IMG/VR virus record: IMGVR_UViG_2740892115_000003
Length of the DNA: 27,180 nt
Direction: 5' to 3' (one strand)
Source: a virus
Taxonomy: Duplodnaviria; Heunggongvirae; Uroviricota; Caudoviricetes
Shown here piece by piece: positions 6,001 to 21,602 of this stretch. Below the pieces are notes generated by a model. The model searched no databases. It was not told the DNA's origin and saw only the letters and a program-made list of their open reading frames with translations. Position numbers and translations under genes: made by a program. Numbering within the stretch: position 1 is the first letter of the stretch; each line of letters begins with the position of its first letter.

Positions 6001-8802
6001 ATGACGGCAGAGTACATCAGGGACTGGCAACAACCGCGCCACGCGGTGGGGCGTGAAGGAACGGGGATCCCCGCTCCTGAATCCGCGCTTTCCTCCTGGC
6101 TGGGCGCCTACCGGGTAGAGAACGAGCGCCGCCAGGAAATGGCTGATGCGGCGTTCTCCGCCACGCCGCTGGGCAACCTGATTAATAAAAGCTTGGACGC
6201 ACAGGAAAAACAGGACAAAACCATCACACTGGCAGGAGACGCCAGAAAACAGGCACGCGGCGCGGTGGATGAAGCCATGGCCTCGCTGCGCCTGCTGCCG
6301 TCCTATCTGCGCGATCCGCTTATTCGCCACCTCTCCTTCCTGCGCAAAAAACAGGAAGCCGATCGCCGGAAAGGCAAAAAGAGCTGGCAGGCGGAACGCT
6401 ATGCACGCGGAACCCTGCGCAAAATATTCGAACGTCTGGACCGCACCGATCACCGCTGGCTGACACCGGGTTATCGCTCCCTTGCTGGACGCGAACGCCT
6501 GGACGATTTGCTTTACCTGCCGCAGCTCAACAAACACCAGATACAGACGCTGGCCACCATGACGGCGGCGATGTTCAGCAGCACCTTCGAAAAACTCTGC
6601 GATGGCTTTGGCGCGACTGATGGCGAACTGACCATGGATGTAACGCTGAAGGCGTATCAGATGCTGGCCCGCATGGCGTTACACCTGCACGCCATGCCTC
6701 CACATTATGACTCACTGACAACAGACAAAGACCGGAGGAACGAACCGGACACAGAGCTGCTGCCGGGCGCAATCCTTCGCCTGACCTGTGCGGAATGGTG
6801 GAAACGCAAACTATGGCTGTTACGTTGCGAGTGGAGAGAAGAACAACTCCGCGCCGCCTGTCTGGTTTCCAGAAAAACATCGCCCTATCTGAGCCAGGAC
6901 GCGTTAAGCGAGTTTCGCGCACAGCGCGAGAAAACACGCGATTTCCTGAAAAGTTTCATGCTGGAAAACGAAGACGGGTTCACGATTGATCTCGAGACAG
7001 TGTATTACGCGGGAGTAAGTAACCCGGTTCACCGTAAGGCAGAAATGATGGCCACCATGAAGGGACTGGAACTTCTGGCCGAAGCCCGTGGCGACAGAGC
7101 GGTGTTTCTGACTGTCACCTGCCCGTCAAAATACCACGCAACAACGGAGAACGGTCATCCGAACCCCAAATGGAACGGGGCCACCATGCGCGACTCCAGC
7201 GATTACCTGGTTAACACGTTTTTTGCGGCGGTCCGCAAAAAACTGAACCGCGACGGCCTGCGCTGGTATGGCATCCGCACGGTGGAGCCTCACCATGACG
7301 GCACCGTGCACTGGCATATGATGGTCTTTGCTCATCCGGAAGAAATCGACAGCATCGTGGCCATCACCCGCGATATTGCCATTCAGGAAGACCGCCACGA
7401 GCTGGGCAATGATATTACTCCGCGCTTTAAAGTGGAGTATGTCGACGGCTCAAAAGGCACACCAACCAGCTATATCGCGACCTACATCGGGAAAAACCTG
7501 GACAGCCGCGCCGTGGATGGCATCGACCCGAAAACGGGCAAACCACGCGTTGACCACGAAACCGGAAAATCAATGGCCGAGAGCGTGGAGCGCGCCATCG
7601 GTTGGGCACGCCTTCACCGGGTCCGCCAGTTCCAGTTCTTTGGCATCCCCTCCCGTCAGGTGTGGCGTGAACTCCGCCGCCTTGCCAGCCAGATGGCACG
7701 CAACCCGGAAGGCCCGCAACGGCTGAAGGATGACGCAATGGATGCGGTACTCGCTGCCGCTGATGCCGGATGTTTTGCCACCTACATAGAGAAACAGGGC
7801 GGCGTACTTGTTCCACGCAAAGACTACCTGATTCGCACCGCCTACGACCTCGCCGATGAGCTGAACGATTACGGCGAACAGAGTGTACAGATTTACGGGA
7901 TCTGGTCACCACTCATCGGGGAATCCTCCCGTGTGTGCACGCACCCGGATAACTGGAAGCTGGTAAGACGTAAACCGGAACAGGAAGGCAGCGCCCACGA
8001 AAATGGTTTTGACCTTCAGGGCGGCCCTGCCGCCCCTTGGACTCGTGGCAATAACTGTCCCCGTGTACAGGAAACGGACAACAACGGGACAGAACAGCCG
8101 GAAGAACGGCCAGCACCGTGGCCGCAGCTTCCTGACGGCGTTGACGTGAACGAATGGATGCGCTCACTGAAACGGCACGAACGCCGGGCGCTGATGCATT
8201 CGCTGCGTGACAAACAGGCAAAAAACAGCAGTGATGAAATGCAGAGCTGGACACAGAGCCGCAAACAGCAGCGGCCTTTGCCTGATAACCACGAATTACT
8301 CGCTAAAGAATGGCGGGAGTCTGCCGAATCTCTCGGCCTGCATATCGGTGAACAGCAGATGCAGCACCTGTTACGGGGCGGCAGTCTGTACGTTGACGGC
8401 AGCATCATTGCACCGCAGGGATTTGAAATTGTACGCAAACCGGATACCCGACCGGACAGCCGGATCACGCAGCTCTGGCAGCGCCTGAGCCGTAACCACG
8501 GCGTAAGCAGTACGGAGATCCGCCATAACCCGGTCGCCAGCTATCTGGAACAGCTGAGGGCATCAGACCCCGAAGCCGCCGCACGCCTGGCATCCACACT
8601 TCAGCAAGACCAGAACACCATGAAAACACCCGTTACCGTGCTTTCTGACATGCTGCGCGCCATCCGCGACGCAGAGCACGCACAGAGAATCAGTGAAACC
8701 ACTGAACGCGCCCGCCGCAAAGCAGACCTGCTGCGGGGTGGCCTGACCAGTGGAAACAAAAAACAGACAGAAACGGGATTTCAGAATCCCGTAAACGATT
8801 AA
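6001..8802 (+). CDS. A: Rolling-circle replication initiator endonuclease (P2 gpA family) with a long C-terminal extension
   Basis: It has an HUH motif (GTVHWHMMVF) and a paired-tyrosine motif (SYIATYIGKN). It aligns broadly with remembered P2 gpA (LTVTCPSKYH and VEPHHDGT.HWHMM). Its position is syntenic. Confidence 0.95.
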   Translation: MTAEYIRDWQQPRHAVGREGTGIPAPESALSSWLGAYRVENERRQEMADAAFSATPLGNLINKSLDAQEKQDKTITLAGDARKQARGAVDEAMASLRLLPSYLRDPLIRHLSFLRKKQEADRRKGKKSWQAERYARGTLRKIFERLDRTDHRWLTPGYRSLAGRERLDDLLYLPQLNKHQIQTLATMTAAMFSSTFEKLCDGFGATDGELTMDVTLKAYQMLARMALHLHAMPPHYDSLTTDKDRRNEPDTELLPGAILRLTCAEWWKRKLWLLRCEWREEQLRAACLVSRKTSPYLSQDALSEFRAQREKTRDFLKSFMLENEDGFTIDLETVYYAGVSNPVHRKAEMMATMKGLELLAEARGDRAVFLTVTCPSKYHATTENGHPNPKWNGATMRDSSDYLVNTFFAAVRKKLNRDGLRWYGIRTVEPHHDGTVHWHMMVFAHPEEIDSIVAITRDIAIQEDRHELGNDITPRFKVEYVDGSKGTPTSYIATYIGKNLDSRAVDGIDPKTGKPRVDHETGKSMAESVERAIGWARLHRVRQFQFFGIPSRQVWRELRRLASQMARNPEGPQRLKDDAMDAVLAAADAGCFATYIEKQGGVLVPRKDYLIRTAYDLADELNDYGEQSVQIYGIWSPLIGESSRVCTHPDNWKLVRRKPEQEGSAHENGFDLQGGPAAPWTRGNNCPRVQETDNNGTEQPEERPAPWPQLPDGVDVNEWMRSLKRHERRALMHSLRDKQAKNSSDEMQSWTQSRKQQRPLPDNHELLAKEWRESAESLGLHIGEQQMQHLLRGGSLYVDGSIIAPQGFEIVRKPDTRPDSRITQLWQRLSRNHGVSSTEIRHNPVASYLEQLRASDPEAAARLASTLQQDQNTMKTPVTVLSDMLRAIRDAEHAQRISETTERARRKADLLRGGLTSGNKKQTETGFQNPVND

Positions 8803-8826
8803 TTAATCAACATAAGGAAAAGCGAC

Positions 8827-9786
8827 ATGAAAATTTGTATCGATGACGGCTCCACCAACATCAAGCTGGCATGGACTGAGAACGGCGAACGCCGCAACGC
8901 CATCAGCCCGAACAGCTTCAAGTCGGAATGGTCTGCGCCGTTCGGTGGCACGCAGCCCGCGAACTACATGCTTGATGGCGTGCGCTATGGTTTTGATCCG
9001 GTCAGCGATCGCTTTGTCCAGACGACTGACACGCAATACCAGTACAGCGATGTGAATGTCATTGCCATTCATCACGCGTTGGTCAAATCAGGCATCACGC
9101 CACAGGAGGTGGATGTGGTTGTCACCCTGCCACTGAGCGAGTATTTCGACACAAACGCACAGCCGGACATAGCCAACATCAACCGCAAAAAAGCGAACGT
9201 TATGCGCCCGGTGGAGTACCAGAACGGCGAAGCATTCACTATCCGTAACGTACGGGTTATGCCTGAATCCATTCCGGCTGGCTTTAAGGCACTGGCTGAC
9301 ATGAGTCCGTTTGAATCCCTGCTGATTGTGGATTTAGGCGGAACCACGCTGGATGTGGCAAAGGTTCAGGGACAACTGGCAGGTATCAGCCAGGTGTTTT
9401 GCGATCCACACGTAGGCGTTTCCCTGATGGCCGATGCCGTACTGTCGGTGATGGCCACTAACGGTATGCGTACCAGTCACCACATCGCCAATACCATTAT
9501 CGAACATCGCCATGATGAAGCCTGGCTGCGCCAGCACATCCACAATGACGCGCATTACGCCAGCCTGATGGCGGTTATTCGTGAAAAGGAAGAAACACTG
9601 AAACAACGCGTGATCCGCGCGCTGGCGGGTTTTTCGGGTTACGGGCGGGTGATGGTTGTCGGTGGAGGGGCGGAGATTGTGGCACCCGCTATCCGCGAAG
9701 CCTGCGGAGTTAATGCGACTTTCATCGCGGACGGGGTGCCACAGTTTGCTCTGGTTAATGGGCTGTACGCAATGGACAAGGAGTAA
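8827..9786 (+). CDS. parM: Actin-like plasmid segregation ATPase ParM/StbA
   Basis: It aligns along its full length with plasmid R1 ParM (from memory). Shared motifs are IDDGSTNIKL, ISPNSFKSEW, VMPESIPAGF, DLGGTTLDV and GGGAE. Confidence 0.93.
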   Translation: MKICIDDGSTNIKLAWTENGERRNAISPNSFKSEWSAPFGGTQPANYMLDGVRYGFDPVSDRFVQTTDTQYQYSDVNVIAIHHALVKSGITPQEVDVVVTLPLSEYFDTNAQPDIANINRKKANVMRPVEYQNGEAFTIRNVRVMPESIPAGFKALADMSPFESLLIVDLGGTTLDVAKVQGQLAGISQVFCDPHVGVSLMADAVLSVMATNGMRTSHHIANTIIEHRHDEAWLRQHIHNDAHYASLMAVIREKEETLKQRVIRALAGFSGYGRVMVVGGGAEIVAPAIREACGVNATFIADGVPQFALVNGLYAMDKE

Positions 9787-9790
9787 ACCA

Positions 9791-10102
9791 ATGACGACAC
9801 CAACCAGACGGATAAGTTTCTATCTGAAGCCTGCGGCCGTCAAGAACGAAAGCGAAGCATGCGCCTGGCTGGACAGCCTTACACCAGAAGCCCGCAAAAG
9901 CGGCCAACGCGTGGCTTTTCTGGCCGGGCTGGCACTACTGAAAATGAATCCGGCAGAGGCTTACCGACTGGCTGCATGGGCTGATGATGAGGCATTATCA
10001 GTGACACAAACCAGGACAGAACGCCCCGCGTCACAGCCAGTATCAGCCGCACAGATAACCAGTCAGATGGCCGGAAATATCCGGGCGTTATTTCCCGAAT
10101 AA
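9791..10102 (+). CDS. parR: ParR-like centromere-binding adaptor (RHH N-terminus)
   Basis: The ATG at 9791 follows AAGGAG. RRISFYLKP...LDSLTPEARKSGQRVAFLAGLALLKMNP parallels R1 ParR (RRTIAFKLNP...LDSIPQGERSRLNRAALTAGLALYRQDP, from memory). It sits immediately after parM. Confidence 0.8.
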   Translation: MTTPTRRISFYLKPAAVKNESEACAWLDSLTPEARKSGQRVAFLAGLALLKMNPAEAYRLAAWADDEALSVTQTRTERPASQPVSAAQITSQMAGNIRALFPE

Positions 10103-10107
10103 CACAA

Positions 10108-10137
10108 CATCAGGGCGCATCCGCCCTGATGACTTTA
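10108..10137 (+). terminator. Perfect 10-bp hairpin after parR (possible partial terminator)
   Basis: CATCAGGGCG, a CATC loop, then CGCCCTGATG (10108-10131). It is followed by ACTTTAA, which is only a weak U-tract. Confidence 0.5.
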
Positions 10138-10165
10138 ACCCGGGAGCATAAACAAGGGGGACACA

Positions 10166-10501
10166 ATGCAACACATTGACAGAGAAAAAGCGCAGCGACT
10201 GATTGAGCGGATGGAAGCGCTGGCGAAAGAAGAAAATGTCAACATCCAAAAAATAGCTGAATGTGGCCAGATAGTTCTTCGTCGTGAAAAAGACCTCAAA
10301 CAACTGATGTCTGGCGAAACCAGCAAAACATGGACTTCAGGCGAGAAGACGGTTTATTGCAGTTTCTGCAATAAATCCCAGTACGAAGTCACAAAGGTGA
10401 TTGCCGGACCGTCTGTTTACATCTGCAATGAGTGCGTGGATTTGTGCAATGAAATTATCAGGAAAGAAGTGACAGACCATGAAGAAAAAACGCATGAATG
10501 A
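10166..10501 (+). CDS. Small protein with a C-terminal ClpX-type C4 zinc-binding domain and no AAA+ module
   Basis: An AGGGGG ribosome-binding site lies upstream. [39 protein letters not shown] closely matches the E. coli ClpX N-domain ([39 protein letters not shown], from memory). The N-terminal ~60 aa are helical. Confidence 0.85.
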
Positions 10502-10667
10502 CGAATTTGACGGCTTTTAATTTTATCGGGGCGCACTGTCGCCCTGCATGGAGAAAAACAATAAAAAAGATGAATAACTGCTCATGTCAGACGCGCTGCG
10601 GGCAAGTCTGGCACCCTGCCCTGTTTCCGCAAAGGCTGTTGTCTTAACACGACAGAGTATGCCAGCA

Positions 10668-11075
10668 TTAAATATAATCTTCTTCGTAGTCGCTGATTAA
10701 TTCATTGCCATAATCAGACAGCAATTTCAAAGCAAAGGTAACTTCCTCAAGGGTAGCTATCCCCATTGCTGAAAACACCGTTAATTTAACCAGCAGCAGG
10801 GAGTTTGAAAGTTCGGAAGAGTTCATCATTAAAAATATTGATGCAGCCTGAAAAGCTGTGCGTTTATTCCCATCATGAAAGGCATGAGCCTTGGCTATAC
10901 CAATCAAATACATAGCAGCCAGAGCATGAATATCATCAACCCCTTCATAGTAGTGTAGTGTCCTGACGCGATTTAAAGCACCTTCAAGTAGCCCGTCATT
11001 GGCATTTCCGCTCTGGGGTAAAGTTTCAGCATGGATACGTTCTACTTGTTCTTTTGACAAAAACACTATGTCCAT
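10668..11075 (-). CDS. doc: Doc (death-on-curing) Fic-fold toxin
   Basis: It carries the Doc/Fic motif HAFHDGNKRTAF. It is 135 aa long, and its start overlaps the stop of the upstream antitoxin ORF. Confidence 0.92.
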   Translation of the reverse strand: MDIVFLSKEQVERIHAETLPQSGNANDGLLEGALNRVRTLHYYEGVDDIHALAAMYLIGIAKAHAFHDGNKRTAFQAASIFLMMNSSELSNSLLLVKLTVFSAMGIATLEEVTFALKLLSDYGNELISDYEEDYI

Positions 11076-11431
11076 CAGTTATCCTCAAGCTTTTTAATGA
11101 TATCCGCATGTTTTTCTCTTGTACGCTTCATTGCATCTTCAAAAGACAATCCTTTTTTTCTCTGTGCGACAAGAGCTGGATGACGTTTTTCCAGATCTCT
11201 CACTGCATTTATTAAGAGTGGTTGCTTCATTTTGTTTATTTGATCCCGCAGTTTTTTGGTTTTGCCAAGGACAGCCCGTATTTCAGGACTAAGATCAGAA
11301 CCAGCAAGAACAACATCCTTCCCTCCCTGCGCAGTGATAACGACACTGCCACCGGAAGAAAGGTAATCCAGAATTTCACTCAGGTTCTCACGAAATTCAT
11401 CATCAGTTACAGTTTTCATATTCATTTCCAT
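11075..11431 (-). CDS. Phd/YefM-type antitoxin (long form)
   Basis: The N-terminus TVTDDEFRENLSEILDYLSSGGSVVITAQGGKDVVL has a Phd/YefM-fold pattern. It is translationally coupled to doc. The start may be an internal ATG (11425 or 11419). Confidence 0.8.
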   Translation of the reverse strand: MEMNMKTVTDDEFRENLSEILDYLSSGGSVVITAQGGKDVVLAGSDLSPEIRAVLGKTKKLRDQINKMKQPLLINAVRDLEKRHPALVAQRKKGLSFEDAMKRTREKHADIIKKLEDN

Positions 11432-19583: not shown

Positions 19584-19725
19584 CCCACCCACATGGGGAA
19601 ACCTCGGAATATGGGGCGACCGCCTTCTGGATGCACTGGAAACCTGTAACGCGGATAAACGGGCCATTGCTGAACTGGATAAGAGAATAGCCGAACTGAC
19701 ACACCAGACGGGAGTAACACAATGA
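19444..19725 (+). CDS. o-spanin (Rz1/LysC-like outer-membrane lipoprotein), overlapping the i-spanin in the +1 frame
   Basis: MNAPTLCLTLVLLTGC carries a lipobox (LLTG|C). The mature part is proline-rich. It starts inside the i-spanin and extends beyond it, as with P2 lysB/lysC. Confidence 0.7.
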   Translation: MNAPTLCLTLVLLTGCAGTQNAPGPAPSVRLIPQTLTMPVTPPPFPDPPTWGNLGIWGDRLLDALETCNADKRAIAELDKRIAELTHQTGVTQ

Positions 19726-21602
19726 CCAGTAAGAACTTTGCACTGATTACAGCCATGACACAGGCTGAACTGACTCAAAAGGTGAATGAACATCTTGCGA
19801 AAGGGTGGCATCTTCAGGGGGAGACGCGGGTTGCCTACGAACCCGGCACCCCGTGGTATCTAATGCAGGCAATGGTGGCCGATGGCACTACAGACATCTC
19901 ACCTGATTCCCCCCAGCACGGCAGCGTGCCGGAGTGGTATTACGTGGTGGTACTTGCTGGTCAATCCAATGCCATGTCATATGGTGATGGAATGCCGCTG
20001 CCGGATTCTTACGATGCGCCCCACCCACGCATTAAGCAACTGGCCCGTCGCAACACAGTGACTCCCGGTGGTAAAGCATGCGCATTTAACGACATCATTC
20101 CGGCAGACCACTGCCTGCATGATGTTCAGGATATGAGCGCACTGAATCATCCGAAGGCAGACCTGAGCAAAGGGCAGTACGGCTGTGTCGGCCAGGGCTT
20201 ACATATTGCCAAAAAACTGCTTCCGTATATCCCGAATAACGCGGGGATCCTGCTGGTACCATGCTGTCGTGGTGGTTCGGCATTCACCCAGGGCGCGGAG
20301 GGGACATTCAGTGCGGACACGGGGGCCAGCCAGGATTCGGCGCGCTGGGGTGCGGGTAAGCCGTTATATCAGGACCTGATCGCACGCACCAAAGCGGCAT
20401 TACAGAAGAACCCGAAAAATGTGTTGCTGGCGGTGTGCTGGATGCAGGGCGAATTTGACATGAGCGCTGCCACCTACGCACAGCAACCGGACCTGTTCAC
20501 GGCCATGCTGAAGCAGTTCCGTACTGACCTTTCCGGATTTAACGCGCAGTGCCATGGCGGCAGTGCTGCAGTTGTACCGTGGATTTGTGGCGACACGACG
20601 TATTACTGGAAAAACACATACGGCACACAGTATGACTCCGTCTACGGCGCGTACAAAAACAGGGAGAGCGACAACGTTTTCTTTGTGCCGTTCATGACCG
20701 ACGGTAACGGCAACAACACGCCCACCAACTTACCGGCAGAAGACCCGGATATTGCTGATGCAGGTTATTACGGCGCGCAATCCCGTAGTAATGGTAATTG
20801 GGTATCGTCAAATCGTCCGACACATTTCAGTTCATGGGCGCGCAGGGGCATTATTTCGGATCGCCTGGCAACCGCTATTCTGAACGCAGTTGGTCGAACC
20901 AGCGCCTTCATCAGCGGTACCGCACCGGAGATTAAACCCTCGCCCGGCGGCGACACGCCATCGGGGCCGTCTGATGGTGACACATCCGTTCGTACAGTCT
21001 CCCTGCTGCCGACAGCCGGAGAGGCTGCTGCGCAGGGCTGGACCATCACCGGCGGCAGTGTTGCGCTGGAAGATGGTGTGTTTAAGGTTACCAAGCAGAG
21101 CAATAAAACCTGGTCCCTGATGCATCCGGTGGATGACGCAGTCTCCCTGCTGACACGGGGTGGCAGACTGAGCTGTAAGTTTCGACTGTCAGGCGCACTG
21201 ACCAACAACCAGTTCGGTCTGGGAATTTATCTGTATACCGATGTAGCGTTACCTGACGTCGTGGCGATGACCGGGACTGGTAACCCGTTCCTGATGTCGT
21301 TCTTCACCCAGACCACAGACGGCAAACTGAATCTGATGCATCACAAGAAAGCCGGAAACACAAAGTTGGGCGAGTTCGGGAATTACAGTAACGACTGGCA
21401 GACGCTGGAGCTGGTGTTCACCGCCGGCAGTGCCACGGTTACTCCGAAACTGAATGGAGTGGCTGGCCCGGCATTCCAGGTCATAAAAGACAGTCTGACA
21501 CTGGGGCTGAATGCGCTGACGTTAACTGATATCACTAAAAATGCCGCGTACGGCGTCGATATCGGTAGCCTGGTGCTGGAAATCAATAATCCCGCAGCAT
21601 AA
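19722..21602 (+). CDS. DUF1737 / sialate O-acetylesterase (SASA, SGNH-like) / C-terminal lectin-like protein (NanS-p-like)
   Basis: The N-terminus (ALITAMTQAELTQKVNEHLAKGWHLQGE) is DUF1737-like. The esterase has a GQSN nucleophile motif (VVLAGQSNAMSYGDG), then WMQGEFD and PTHFS. The C-terminal ~200 aa are beta-rich and LamG/ConA-like. Its ATGA start overlaps the o-spanin stop. Confidence 0.85.
   Translation: MTSKNFALITAMTQAELTQKVNEHLAKGWHLQGETRVAYEPGTPWYLMQAMVADGTTDISPDSPQHGSVPEWYYVVVLAGQSNAMSYGDGMPLPDSYDAPHPRIKQLARRNTVTPGGKACAFNDIIPADHCLHDVQDMSALNHPKADLSKGQYGCVGQGLHIAKKLLPYIPNNAGILLVPCCRGGSAFTQGAEGTFSADTGASQDSARWGAGKPLYQDLIARTKAALQKNPKNVLLAVCWMQGEFDMSAATYAQQPDLFTAMLKQFRTDLSGFNAQCHGGSAAVVPWICGDTTYYWKNTYGTQYDSVYGAYKNRESDNVFFVPFMTDGNGNNTPTNLPAEDPDIADAGYYGAQSRSNGNWVSSNRPTHFSSWARRGIISDRLATAILNAVGRTSAFISGTAPEIKPSPGGDTPSGPSDGDTSVRTVSLLPTAGEAAAQGWTITGGSVALEDGVFKVTKQSNKTWSLMHPVDDAVSLLTRGGRLSCKFRLSGALTNNQFGLGIYLYTDVALPDVVAMTGTGNPFLMSFFTQTTDGKLNLMHHKKAGNTKLGEFGNYSNDWQTLELVFTAGSATVTPKLNGVAGPAFQVIKDSLTLGLNALTLTDITKNAAYGVDIGSLVLEINNPAA

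Follow-up and report, generated by a model that had tools for sequence, protein, structure and literature searches.

A stand-alone ClpX-type zinc-binding domain joined to a two-helix module in P2-like prophages, a candidate mimic of the ClpX N-domain

The gene and the element that carries it

The window analysed here is the whole 27,180-nucleotide stretch of the IMG/VR virus record IMGVR_UViG_2740892115_000003 (Caudoviricetes). It is 100% identical to an integrated prophage beside pdxB in Escherichia coli NZ_OZ039818.1, and the element is P2-like and related to phage P88 (Xuanwuvirus, Peduoviridae). Its gene order runs integrase, repressor, cox, early genes, gpA (6001–8802), parM, parR, the gene under study, a convergent doc/phd pair, portal and terminase. 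The gene under study lies at 10166–10501 on the plus strand, starts with ATG and encodes 111 amino acids followed by a stop codon. Its product combines a helical N-terminal module (N-module), a linker, and a zinc-binding domain (ZBD) of the kind found at the N terminus of ClpX, and we refer to it as the ZBD gene. A preliminary description of this DNA had proposed a stand-alone, phage-borne copy of the ClpX domain, and that identification holds. The gene includes the following features:

10166–10501, plus strand: complete open reading frame (ORF) for the N-module/ClpX-ZBD protein, identical to WP_063611460.1 ('ClpX C4-type zinc finger protein')
10154–10161, plus strand: ribosome-binding site AAGGGGGA, as read from the sequence, with its run of G stopping 5 nt short of the ATG
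10166–10309, plus strand: N-module, residues 1–48, a predicted helical hairpin (6–23, 27–48) in which E17, E23, and L38 are invariant across lineages
10310–10348, plus strand: flexible linker, residues 49–61, varying in length and sequence between lineages
10349–10471, plus strand: ClpX-type C4 ZBD, residues 62–102, with putative ligands C65, C68, C87, and C90, two short strands, and a C-terminal helix
10472–10498, plus strand: charged C-terminal tail TDHEEKTHE, which varies among lineages and is modelled with low confidence as a continuation of the helix

The ORF has a GC content of 43%, compared to 53% for the window. Its product is a full-length member of PHROG 6797 (E 3.4e-58; residues 1–105 on profile positions 5–106 of 107), a family of unknown function, and is named 'ClpX C4-type zinc finger protein' by PGAP and RefSeq; neither source assigns a function. 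The domain call is thus already public in PGAP and PHROG 6797, as well as in Table S5 of Rousset et al. 2022. A different name, 'carboxylate--amine ligase', is attached to many NCBI protein entries and to two copies in RefSeq phage records, P88 gp19 (NC_026014.1; L005 2501–2833) and D6 orf93 (NC_050154.1; L002 3980–4300), and no search result obtained here supports it. None of the PADLOC-DB 2.0 defence models matches the ZBD protein, and on this basis its membership in a known defence system is rejected.

An old capture of the ClpX zinc-binding domain

The Pfam domain zf-C4_ClpX (PF06689) matches residues 64–99 at 64.7 bits (cutoff 27; E 7e-18; model positions 2–38 of 39), and residues 62–102, with both CxxC pairs, are as the preliminary description read them. 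C65, C68, C87, and C90 align with ClpX C15, C18, C37, and C40 in the spacing CxxC-18 residues-CxxC, and all four are invariant in 13 family lineages. The best solved relatives are the E. coli ClpX ZBD structures 1ovx (E 5e-20) and 2ds5 (E 3e-19). An AlphaFold2 model built from nine family members has a mean predicted local distance difference test score (pLDDT) of 79 and contains helices at residues 6–23 and 27–48, disorder at 52–59, two short strands, and a helix at 88–110. Its ZBD part (pLDDT 85–91) is predicted to adopt a treble-clef fold with a C-terminal helix and overlays 2ds5, 2ds6, 2ds7, and 2ds8 at 0.6–0.8 Å (target TM-score 0.87–0.91). By sequence and in the predicted fold, this is a true ClpX-type domain. 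The protein probably binds zinc and is likely to dimerise; the ligands and the hydrophobic residues of the helix and hairpin are conserved.

The ClpX equivalog models TIGR00382 and NF003745 reach 50 bits, where their cutoffs are 371 and 359. Because this match is confined to model positions 3–53 and the protein stops at residue 111, the AAA+ body is absent, as had been proposed. Over the core, 31 of 41 residues (76%) are identical to residues 12–52 of K-12 ClpX, so the wording 'nearly identical' overstated the resemblance. Across 47 aligned residues, 32 are conserved between the ZBD protein and ClpX, and 20 of these 32 are encoded by a different codon, at a nucleotide identity of 63%; the proposal that the domain is not a recent clpX fragment is borne out by these values. 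Synonymous sites are saturated, which marks the domain as an old capture.

An obligate two-helix module on an unconstrained tether

A search of 5.8 billion proteins recovers a narrow family of full-length relatives, with P88-type members at 90–100% identity followed by lineages at 73%, 54%, and 45%; most other matches are N-terminal fragments of ClpX on short contigs. Family members share the layout seen in the window, in which a two-helix N-module, a variable linker, and a ClpX-type ZBD add up to ~105–130 amino acids.

The N-module is modelled with a pLDDT of 82–90, has no match in Pfam, and its hairpin matches no structure in the PDB or BFVD significantly. When 1.84 billion cluster representatives are searched with a profile of the N-terminal 58 residues, 18 proteins match, and every intact short one also contains a ClpX-type ZBD. 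The remainder are frameshifted or truncated copies and three long proteins, which align only over short repeated stretches and look like low-complexity noise; this search thus finds the N-module in no other architecture. Since the profile detects it only when fused to the ZBD, the helical N-terminus is a family-specific two-helix module that exists only in this fusion. The 'short helical N-terminus' of the preliminary description is therefore more than a short extension, being a conserved module never found without the ZBD. Kinship of the N-module to the nearby Ead/Ea22 proteins was considered and rejected, as neither Pfam nor BLAST links them.

The ZBD and the N-module differ in how far they have diverged. 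Identity of the ZBD to E. coli ClpX ranges from 51 to 89% across lineages (70–89% in most), with dN/dS between lineages of 0.12–0.35. For the N-module, identity between lineages drops to 28–40%, synonymous sites are saturated, and dN is 0.46–0.77. In the linker, pLDDT falls below 50 at residues 52–59, length differs by up to 15 residues, and dN/dS is ~1 or higher. Purifying selection thus acts on the N-module and on the ZBD, whereas the linker between them evolves as an unconstrained tether.

Inactivated copies occur as well. The ET358 copy (L007 2567–2901) lacks one A of a six-A run (AAAAAA) corresponding to ~10241–10246 of the window, and several entries, among them P0010, P0018, P0126, and P0127, belong to a set that is frameshifted or truncated, in several cases past the N-module. 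Such copies are what would be expected if the gene were a decaying, functionless piece of host DNA picked up by the phage. We consider this highly improbable, because at least 13 diverged lineages keep an intact reading frame behind a strong ribosome-binding site, both domains show dN/dS well below 1 at saturated dS, the two-domain architecture is conserved, and the ZBD is not a recent piece of clpX. Codon divergence and the selection analysis together lead us to reject a recent clpX fragment or pseudogene.

Synonymous divergence of the ZBD from the P0015 and pEc1079_2 copies is 0.3–0.4, far below that of the N-module. The pEc1079_2 copy (L003 3776–4138) is a mosaic relative to window positions 10349–10465, with the first half of its ZBD of the P88 type (86% nucleotide identity over 116 nt) and the second half of the D6 type. 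The low synonymous divergence and this mosaic suggest within-gene recombination between lineages.

Unrelated phages repeatedly carry stand-alone zinc fingers of the ClpX type with other extensions (PHROGs 12435, 5259, and 20296), none of which appears to have been characterised. Examples include Pseudomonas phage PP9W2 (65 amino acids), Klebsiella phage ST846-OXA48phi9.2, Caulobacter phage Cr30, and gp258 of Bacillus phage G. In the stand-alone ZBD proteins of actinobacteria (P0074), the domain is joined to an apparent helix-turn-helix region.

The ligand-binding surface compared to ClpX

In ClpX, the N-domain forms a dimer and serves as the docking site for SspB, RssB, lambda O, MuA, and the MqsA degron (PMC8808172, PMC5415555, PMC7804408), in line with the background given in the preliminary description for the dimer and for SspB, lambda O, and MuA. 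The ClpX variants L12S, L13A/D, and H23A lose binding to the MqsA degron, and the strongest chemical-shift changes for this degron occur at D3, K4, L13, K27, I29, and A30 (PMC8808172). H23 also matters for the SspB tail, a peptide of which competes with MqsA for the N-domain (PMC8808172). ClpX without its ZBD fails to degrade lambda O (PMC7804408); in the second-hand account given there, the lambda O site is a hydrophobic patch around F16 and I46 (mature numbering), in a region that also binds SspB and RssB. The corresponding positions, numbered to include Met1 of ClpX and compared across 13 family lineages, are as follows:

ClpX F17, here F67: invariant in the family
ClpX I47, here I97: I in 11 of 13 and V in 2 of 13
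ClpX I29 and G31, both kept here: I29 is I in 12 of 13 and V in 1 of 13; G31 is invariant
ClpX A30, here A80: kept in 12 of 13
ClpX L13, here V63: always L, V, or I
ClpX L12, here T62: Leu in 1 of 13
ClpX H23, here Y73: Y in 6, H in 5, and T in 2
ClpX K27, here K77: K in 7, Q in 2, R in 2, M in 1, and L in 1

Among the residues addressed by mutagenesis or binding experiments, L12, L13, and H23 are thus replaced in the window protein by T, V, and Y, respectively, while F17, K27, I29, A30, and I47 are kept; R26 is changed as well. The strongly shifted positions L13, I29, and A30 are hydrophobic or identical in nearly all lineages. Judged from these residues, the binding groove appears largely but not fully kept, and it may share part of its ligand range with ClpX or have shifted to other ligands.

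Position of the ZBD gene in relatives and its expression

P2-like phages have a cargo hotspot between gpA and gpQ in which anti-phage systems are abundant (Rousset et al. 2022, PMC9122126). The ZBD gene sits within this hotspot, between gpA and portal, as had been proposed, and relatives of the element carry differing cargo there. Table S5 of that study lists an arrangement 'StbA + Plasmid_stab_B + zf-C4_ClpX + ...', which was untested in that work (PMC9122126). The hairpin, upstream parR, and convergent phd-doc noted in the preliminary description are all present around the gene:

9791–10102, plus strand: parR (Plasmid_stab_B, 85.9 bits), the upstream neighbour on the same strand, given as context only
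10108–10131, no strand assigned: GC-rich hairpin with a perfect 10-bp stem, between parR and the ZBD gene
10584–10642, plus strand: remnant of the 5' end of a 174-amino-acid cargo gene, whose peptide ALRASLAPCPVSAKAVV matches ALRVGLAPCPVSVEAVV
10668–11431, minus strand: doc-phd cassette (doc 10668–11075, phd 11075–11431), convergent with the ZBD gene and a neighbour, not a partner

A place just downstream of gpA and on the same strand is kept in four diverged lineages of P2-like prophages. The Salmonella (45%) and P0015 (54%) lineages are found in other P2-like prophages without parMR, where the ZBD gene lies between gpA and portal, on the gpA strand, one to three small ORFs past gpA. More distant copies (48–51%) occur in the phage-plasmids D6, PhiR41_1, and CMS-2020a and in plasmid pEc1079_2. 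There the gene abuts or overlaps its upstream neighbour and is embedded in arrays of small early accessory genes (ea22, eaA, DUF4752).

We also surveyed complete E. coli genomes using a spread sample of the matches. In 26 genomes the ZBD gene is followed by the window's downstream sequence or a close variant, and in ~85–90, as estimated from 17 of 40 evenly spaced rows, a different gene follows it. The family is present in ~2% of complete E. coli genomes, and UTI89, which belongs to the second group, is one of them. Many complete E. coli genomes lack the ZBD gene, yet homology in them continues past the hairpin and the ribosome-binding site into the first ~8 codons. The cassette junction is internal to the gene (window 10100–10190), and those codons (MQHIDREK...), like the hairpin and ribosome-binding site, are shared by P88-type loci that lack the ZBD gene. 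Other cargo proteins (P0133, P0129) begin with the same residues as the ZBD protein. The translation start seems to stay fixed while the cargo genes behind it are exchanged.

The downstream neighbours of the ZBD gene also differ between loci. An intact 174-amino-acid gene follows it in loci of the ET358 and P0015 types, and in the window nucleotide identity to ET358 is 82.5% until ~10642, where the doc-phd cassette cuts that gene. We rejected the 174-amino-acid gene as a conserved downstream partner: between two contexts it shows 92.5% identity although the ZBD genes there share only ~54%, and it is also found without a ZBD gene. Most loci with the ZBD gene have no phd-doc pair, among them those of P88, ET358, the UTI89 type, Salmonella, and P0015. 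From the differing neighbours and the breakpoint at ~10642 it therefore follows that phd-doc is a later, independent insertion here, which replaced an older downstream gene, and that the ZBD gene is a self-contained single-gene module.

These observations bear on whether the ZBD protein could be a third component of phd-doc or parMR, for instance one controlling the turnover of Phd by ClpXP. The gene adjoins both modules in the window, and Phd of phage P1 is a ClpXP substrate, reportedly since the work of Lehnherr and Yarmolinsky in 1995. The idea has nevertheless very little to recommend it, given the loci above that have the ZBD gene and no phd-doc, the replacement of an older gene by the cassette here, and the Salmonella, P0015, and D6-type copies that have no adjoining parMR. 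On co-occurrence, we reject a partnership with either module.

Upstream of the ZBD gene, none of the lineages examined has a sigma-70-like promoter of its own, a LexA box, or an Ogr-type late promoter. The absence of a LexA box led us to reject a tum-like SOS antirepressor. In all other lineages the gene is preceded by ribosome-binding sites as strong as AAGGGGGA. The ZBD gene is thus probably expressed as the distal gene of an early (or parMR) transcript, and the lack of promoters suggests that early-operon expression is a better fit than a defence gene expressed from the prophage.

The hairpin region folds over 76 nt at -22.9 kcal/mol (z -3.2). Because its T-rich tail is found solely on the minus strand, it makes a poor rightward terminator; by its appearance it would sooner stop leftward transcripts leaving the cargo region than the parMR transcript. 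Further upstream, parM starts 24 nt past the gpA stop codon (window 8803–10102), a gap too short to hold a parC centromere and a promoter upstream of it. Within the cassette, doc matches Fic/DOC at 44 bits and has only weak candidate-system matches in PADLOC. The phd ORF (window 11075–11431) spans 118 amino acids from its first ATG, compared to 114 in the PGAP annotation; its PhdYeFM score of 29.2 falls just below the gathering threshold of 29.8, and the match is limited to the N-terminal ~40 residues. Elsewhere in the element, a 1.9-kb DUF6645 gene between the lysis and tail genes (window 19722–21602; L001 26623–28503) may mark a second cargo position.

Possible functions of the ZBD protein

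Our preferred reading, to which we assign a probability of roughly one in three, is that the ZBD protein mimics the ClpX N-domain and competes with it for N-domain-dependent adaptors and degrons, with the N-module adding avidity or a second partner. Both its binding partners and its effect on ClpXP are predictions. According to this model, a P2-like phage lineage would have captured the N-terminal docking domain of a gammaproteobacterial ClpX and joined it through a flexible linker to the phage's own two-helix module. The product would be a small zinc protein, probably dimeric, made as the distal gene of a polycistronic early operon. Its ClpX-like domain could bind the tails of adaptors (SspB, RssB) as well as N-domain-dependent degrons, such as those of lambda O, MuA, UmuD, and unfolded antitoxins like MqsA. 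By competing with ClpX for these ligands it would slow their degradation or remodelling by ClpXP, while N-domain-independent substrates, such as ssrA-tagged proteins without SspB, would be unaffected. The N-module might provide avidity by self-association or hold a second partner.

Several observations are consistent with this model. The layout of two domains plus a linker resembles that of tethering proteins, and the hydrophobic patch for lambda O, SspB, and RssB is retained (F67 invariant; I97 always I or V). Competition for the N-domain is a real mechanism, as the SspB tail peptide and MqsA illustrate.

Other observations weigh against it. L12 and H23, at which substitution abolishes MqsA-degron binding in ClpX, are T62 and Y73 here, Leu is found at the first in a single lineage, and K27 varies across the family. 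Moreover, P32, S33, Y35, L43, and N45 are invariant in 24 sampled bona fide ClpX ZBDs, a set drawn from matches to the query and therefore biased toward query-like domains (all have N38, where E. coli has D38), and are less constrained in the family, above all in the copies of the D6 type. The constraint on the family is therefore not simply to look like the host ClpX. A pure decoy also fails to explain the obligatory, conserved N-module, which a bare decoy would not need. The gene is dispensable, being frameshifted or truncated in some prophages and missing from many P88-type loci, and we know of no ClpXP-dependent step in P2-type development.

In a second explanation, with which the relaxed positions agree, the ZBD serves as a dimeric treble-clef module for peptide binding or dimerisation that is independent of ClpX, as in CsfB, and regulates some protein of the phage or host, such as one involved in replication, partition, or transcription. 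The fold is indeed used outside ClpX, as CsfB illustrates (PMC5890618). The zf-C4_ClpX domain is also reported from sigma factors of cyanobacteria, and stand-alone ZBD proteins with other extensions occur, as described above, in actinobacteria and many unrelated phages. The fixed place beside gpA in P2-like phages could likewise point to a replication-linked partner. Against this, the ZBD is 70–89% identical to the host ClpX in most lineages, ligand patch included, unlike CsfB (~20%), and such retention after synonymous saturation is hard to explain if ClpX ligands are irrelevant. We regard this ClpX-independent use as possible, although somewhat unlikely.

The tethering layout could alternatively be that of an adaptor that hijacks ClpX. 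In that case the protein would attach to ClpX, by heterodimerisation of its ZBD with the ClpX N-domain or through the N-module, and its other domain would deliver or shield a specific phage or host protein, re-targeting ClpXP. A conserved second domain on a flexible linker is what such an adaptor would require, and copies of the P88 and Salmonella types match the ClpX dimer-core residues V34, Y35, I36, V41, L43, C44, I47, and I48 (for the nature of the interface, see PMC5890618). D6-type and P0125 copies, however, alter Y35 (to F or C), L43 (to A or V), and I47 (to V), so compatibility with the dimer interface is not family-wide. A ClpX hexamer carries three ZBD dimers at high local concentration, which would probably make invasion by a free monomer hard, and no candidate cargo gene travels with the ZBD gene. 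Re-targeting of this kind is the less probable of these two alternatives, and we consider it improbable overall.

If the ZBD protein is an N-domain mimic, its possible pay-offs would include shielding a phage protein from ClpXP, keeping toxin-antitoxin defences from being switched on in a ClpXP-dependent way, raising sigma-S levels, or disturbing Mu and lambda. With regard to the second of these, activation of RnlAB and LsoAB depends on ClpXP or Lon, and MqsA is degraded by ClpXP (PMC10305079).

Relation to known systems

The closest known counterpart is the E. coli ClpX N-domain itself. Both are C4 treble clefs (in the phage protein by prediction), 76% identical over 41 residues, and the zinc ligands, the core, and most of the ligand patch are kept. 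The phage protein differs in having no AAA+ motor and in carrying a 48-residue helical module and a linker in front of the domain; L12, H23, and R26 are changed, and several ClpX-invariant positions vary within the family.

Phages also encode inhibitors of host AAA+ proteases, including T4 PinA and T7 Gp4.5, which act against Lon, and SPO1 Gp53, which acts on ClpC. Like these, the ZBD protein is a small phage accessory protein that, as an N-domain mimic, would alter the substrates of a host ATP-dependent protease. It has no sequence kinship to them, and whereas they bind the protease, the phage ZBD would copy its docking domain and bind the clients. The anti-adaptors IraD, IraM, IraP, and IraL block delivery of sigma-S to ClpXP by RssB. 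They too are small and stabilise a ClpXP substrate by occupying an adaptor, and by analogy a free ZBD that bound RssB would act likewise; their folds, however, are unrelated, and they are chromosomal stress-response genes.

Apart from the ClpX N-domain, no dimeric treble clef is known other than CsfB (Gin), an anti-sigma factor of Bacillus subtilis that is ~20% identical to ClpX (PMC5890618). It resembles the phage protein in being a stand-alone treble-clef zinc protein, its dimer being known and that of the phage protein only predicted. The surface of CsfB is not conserved, and CsfB is absent from the structural matches of our model, whereas the phage ZBD is clearly ClpX-derived.

Implications for phage biology

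In full-text literature searches we found neither a functional study of this family nor a phage mimic of the ClpX N-domain. New with respect to the literature found are the obligate two-domain architecture, the restriction to enterobacterial temperate phages, the conserved place at the end of the early operon in P2-like phages, and the partial conservation of the ligand groove.

ClpXP steers phage and stress biology through its N-domain, in lambda O turnover, Mu transpososome remodelling, and the control of sigma-S, SOS proteins, and antitoxin degradation. A family competing for N-domain ligands would be an encoded tool that silences only the adaptor- or N-domain-dependent branch of ClpXP. We tentatively propose, while holding it rather doubtful, that temperate enterobacterial phages carry a mimic of the ClpX docking domain that reprograms ClpXP early in development by soaking up its N-domain-dependent adaptors and degrons. 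If this hypothesis is correct, the mimic could block protease-triggered toxin-antitoxin or abortive-infection responses or stabilise a phage protein, and it would represent a new type of phage counter-measure or host-takeover function. It would also be the first viral decoy to copy the recognition domain of a protease instead of binding the protease. If the partner is instead independent of ClpX, the family would show how phages recycle a host recognition module.

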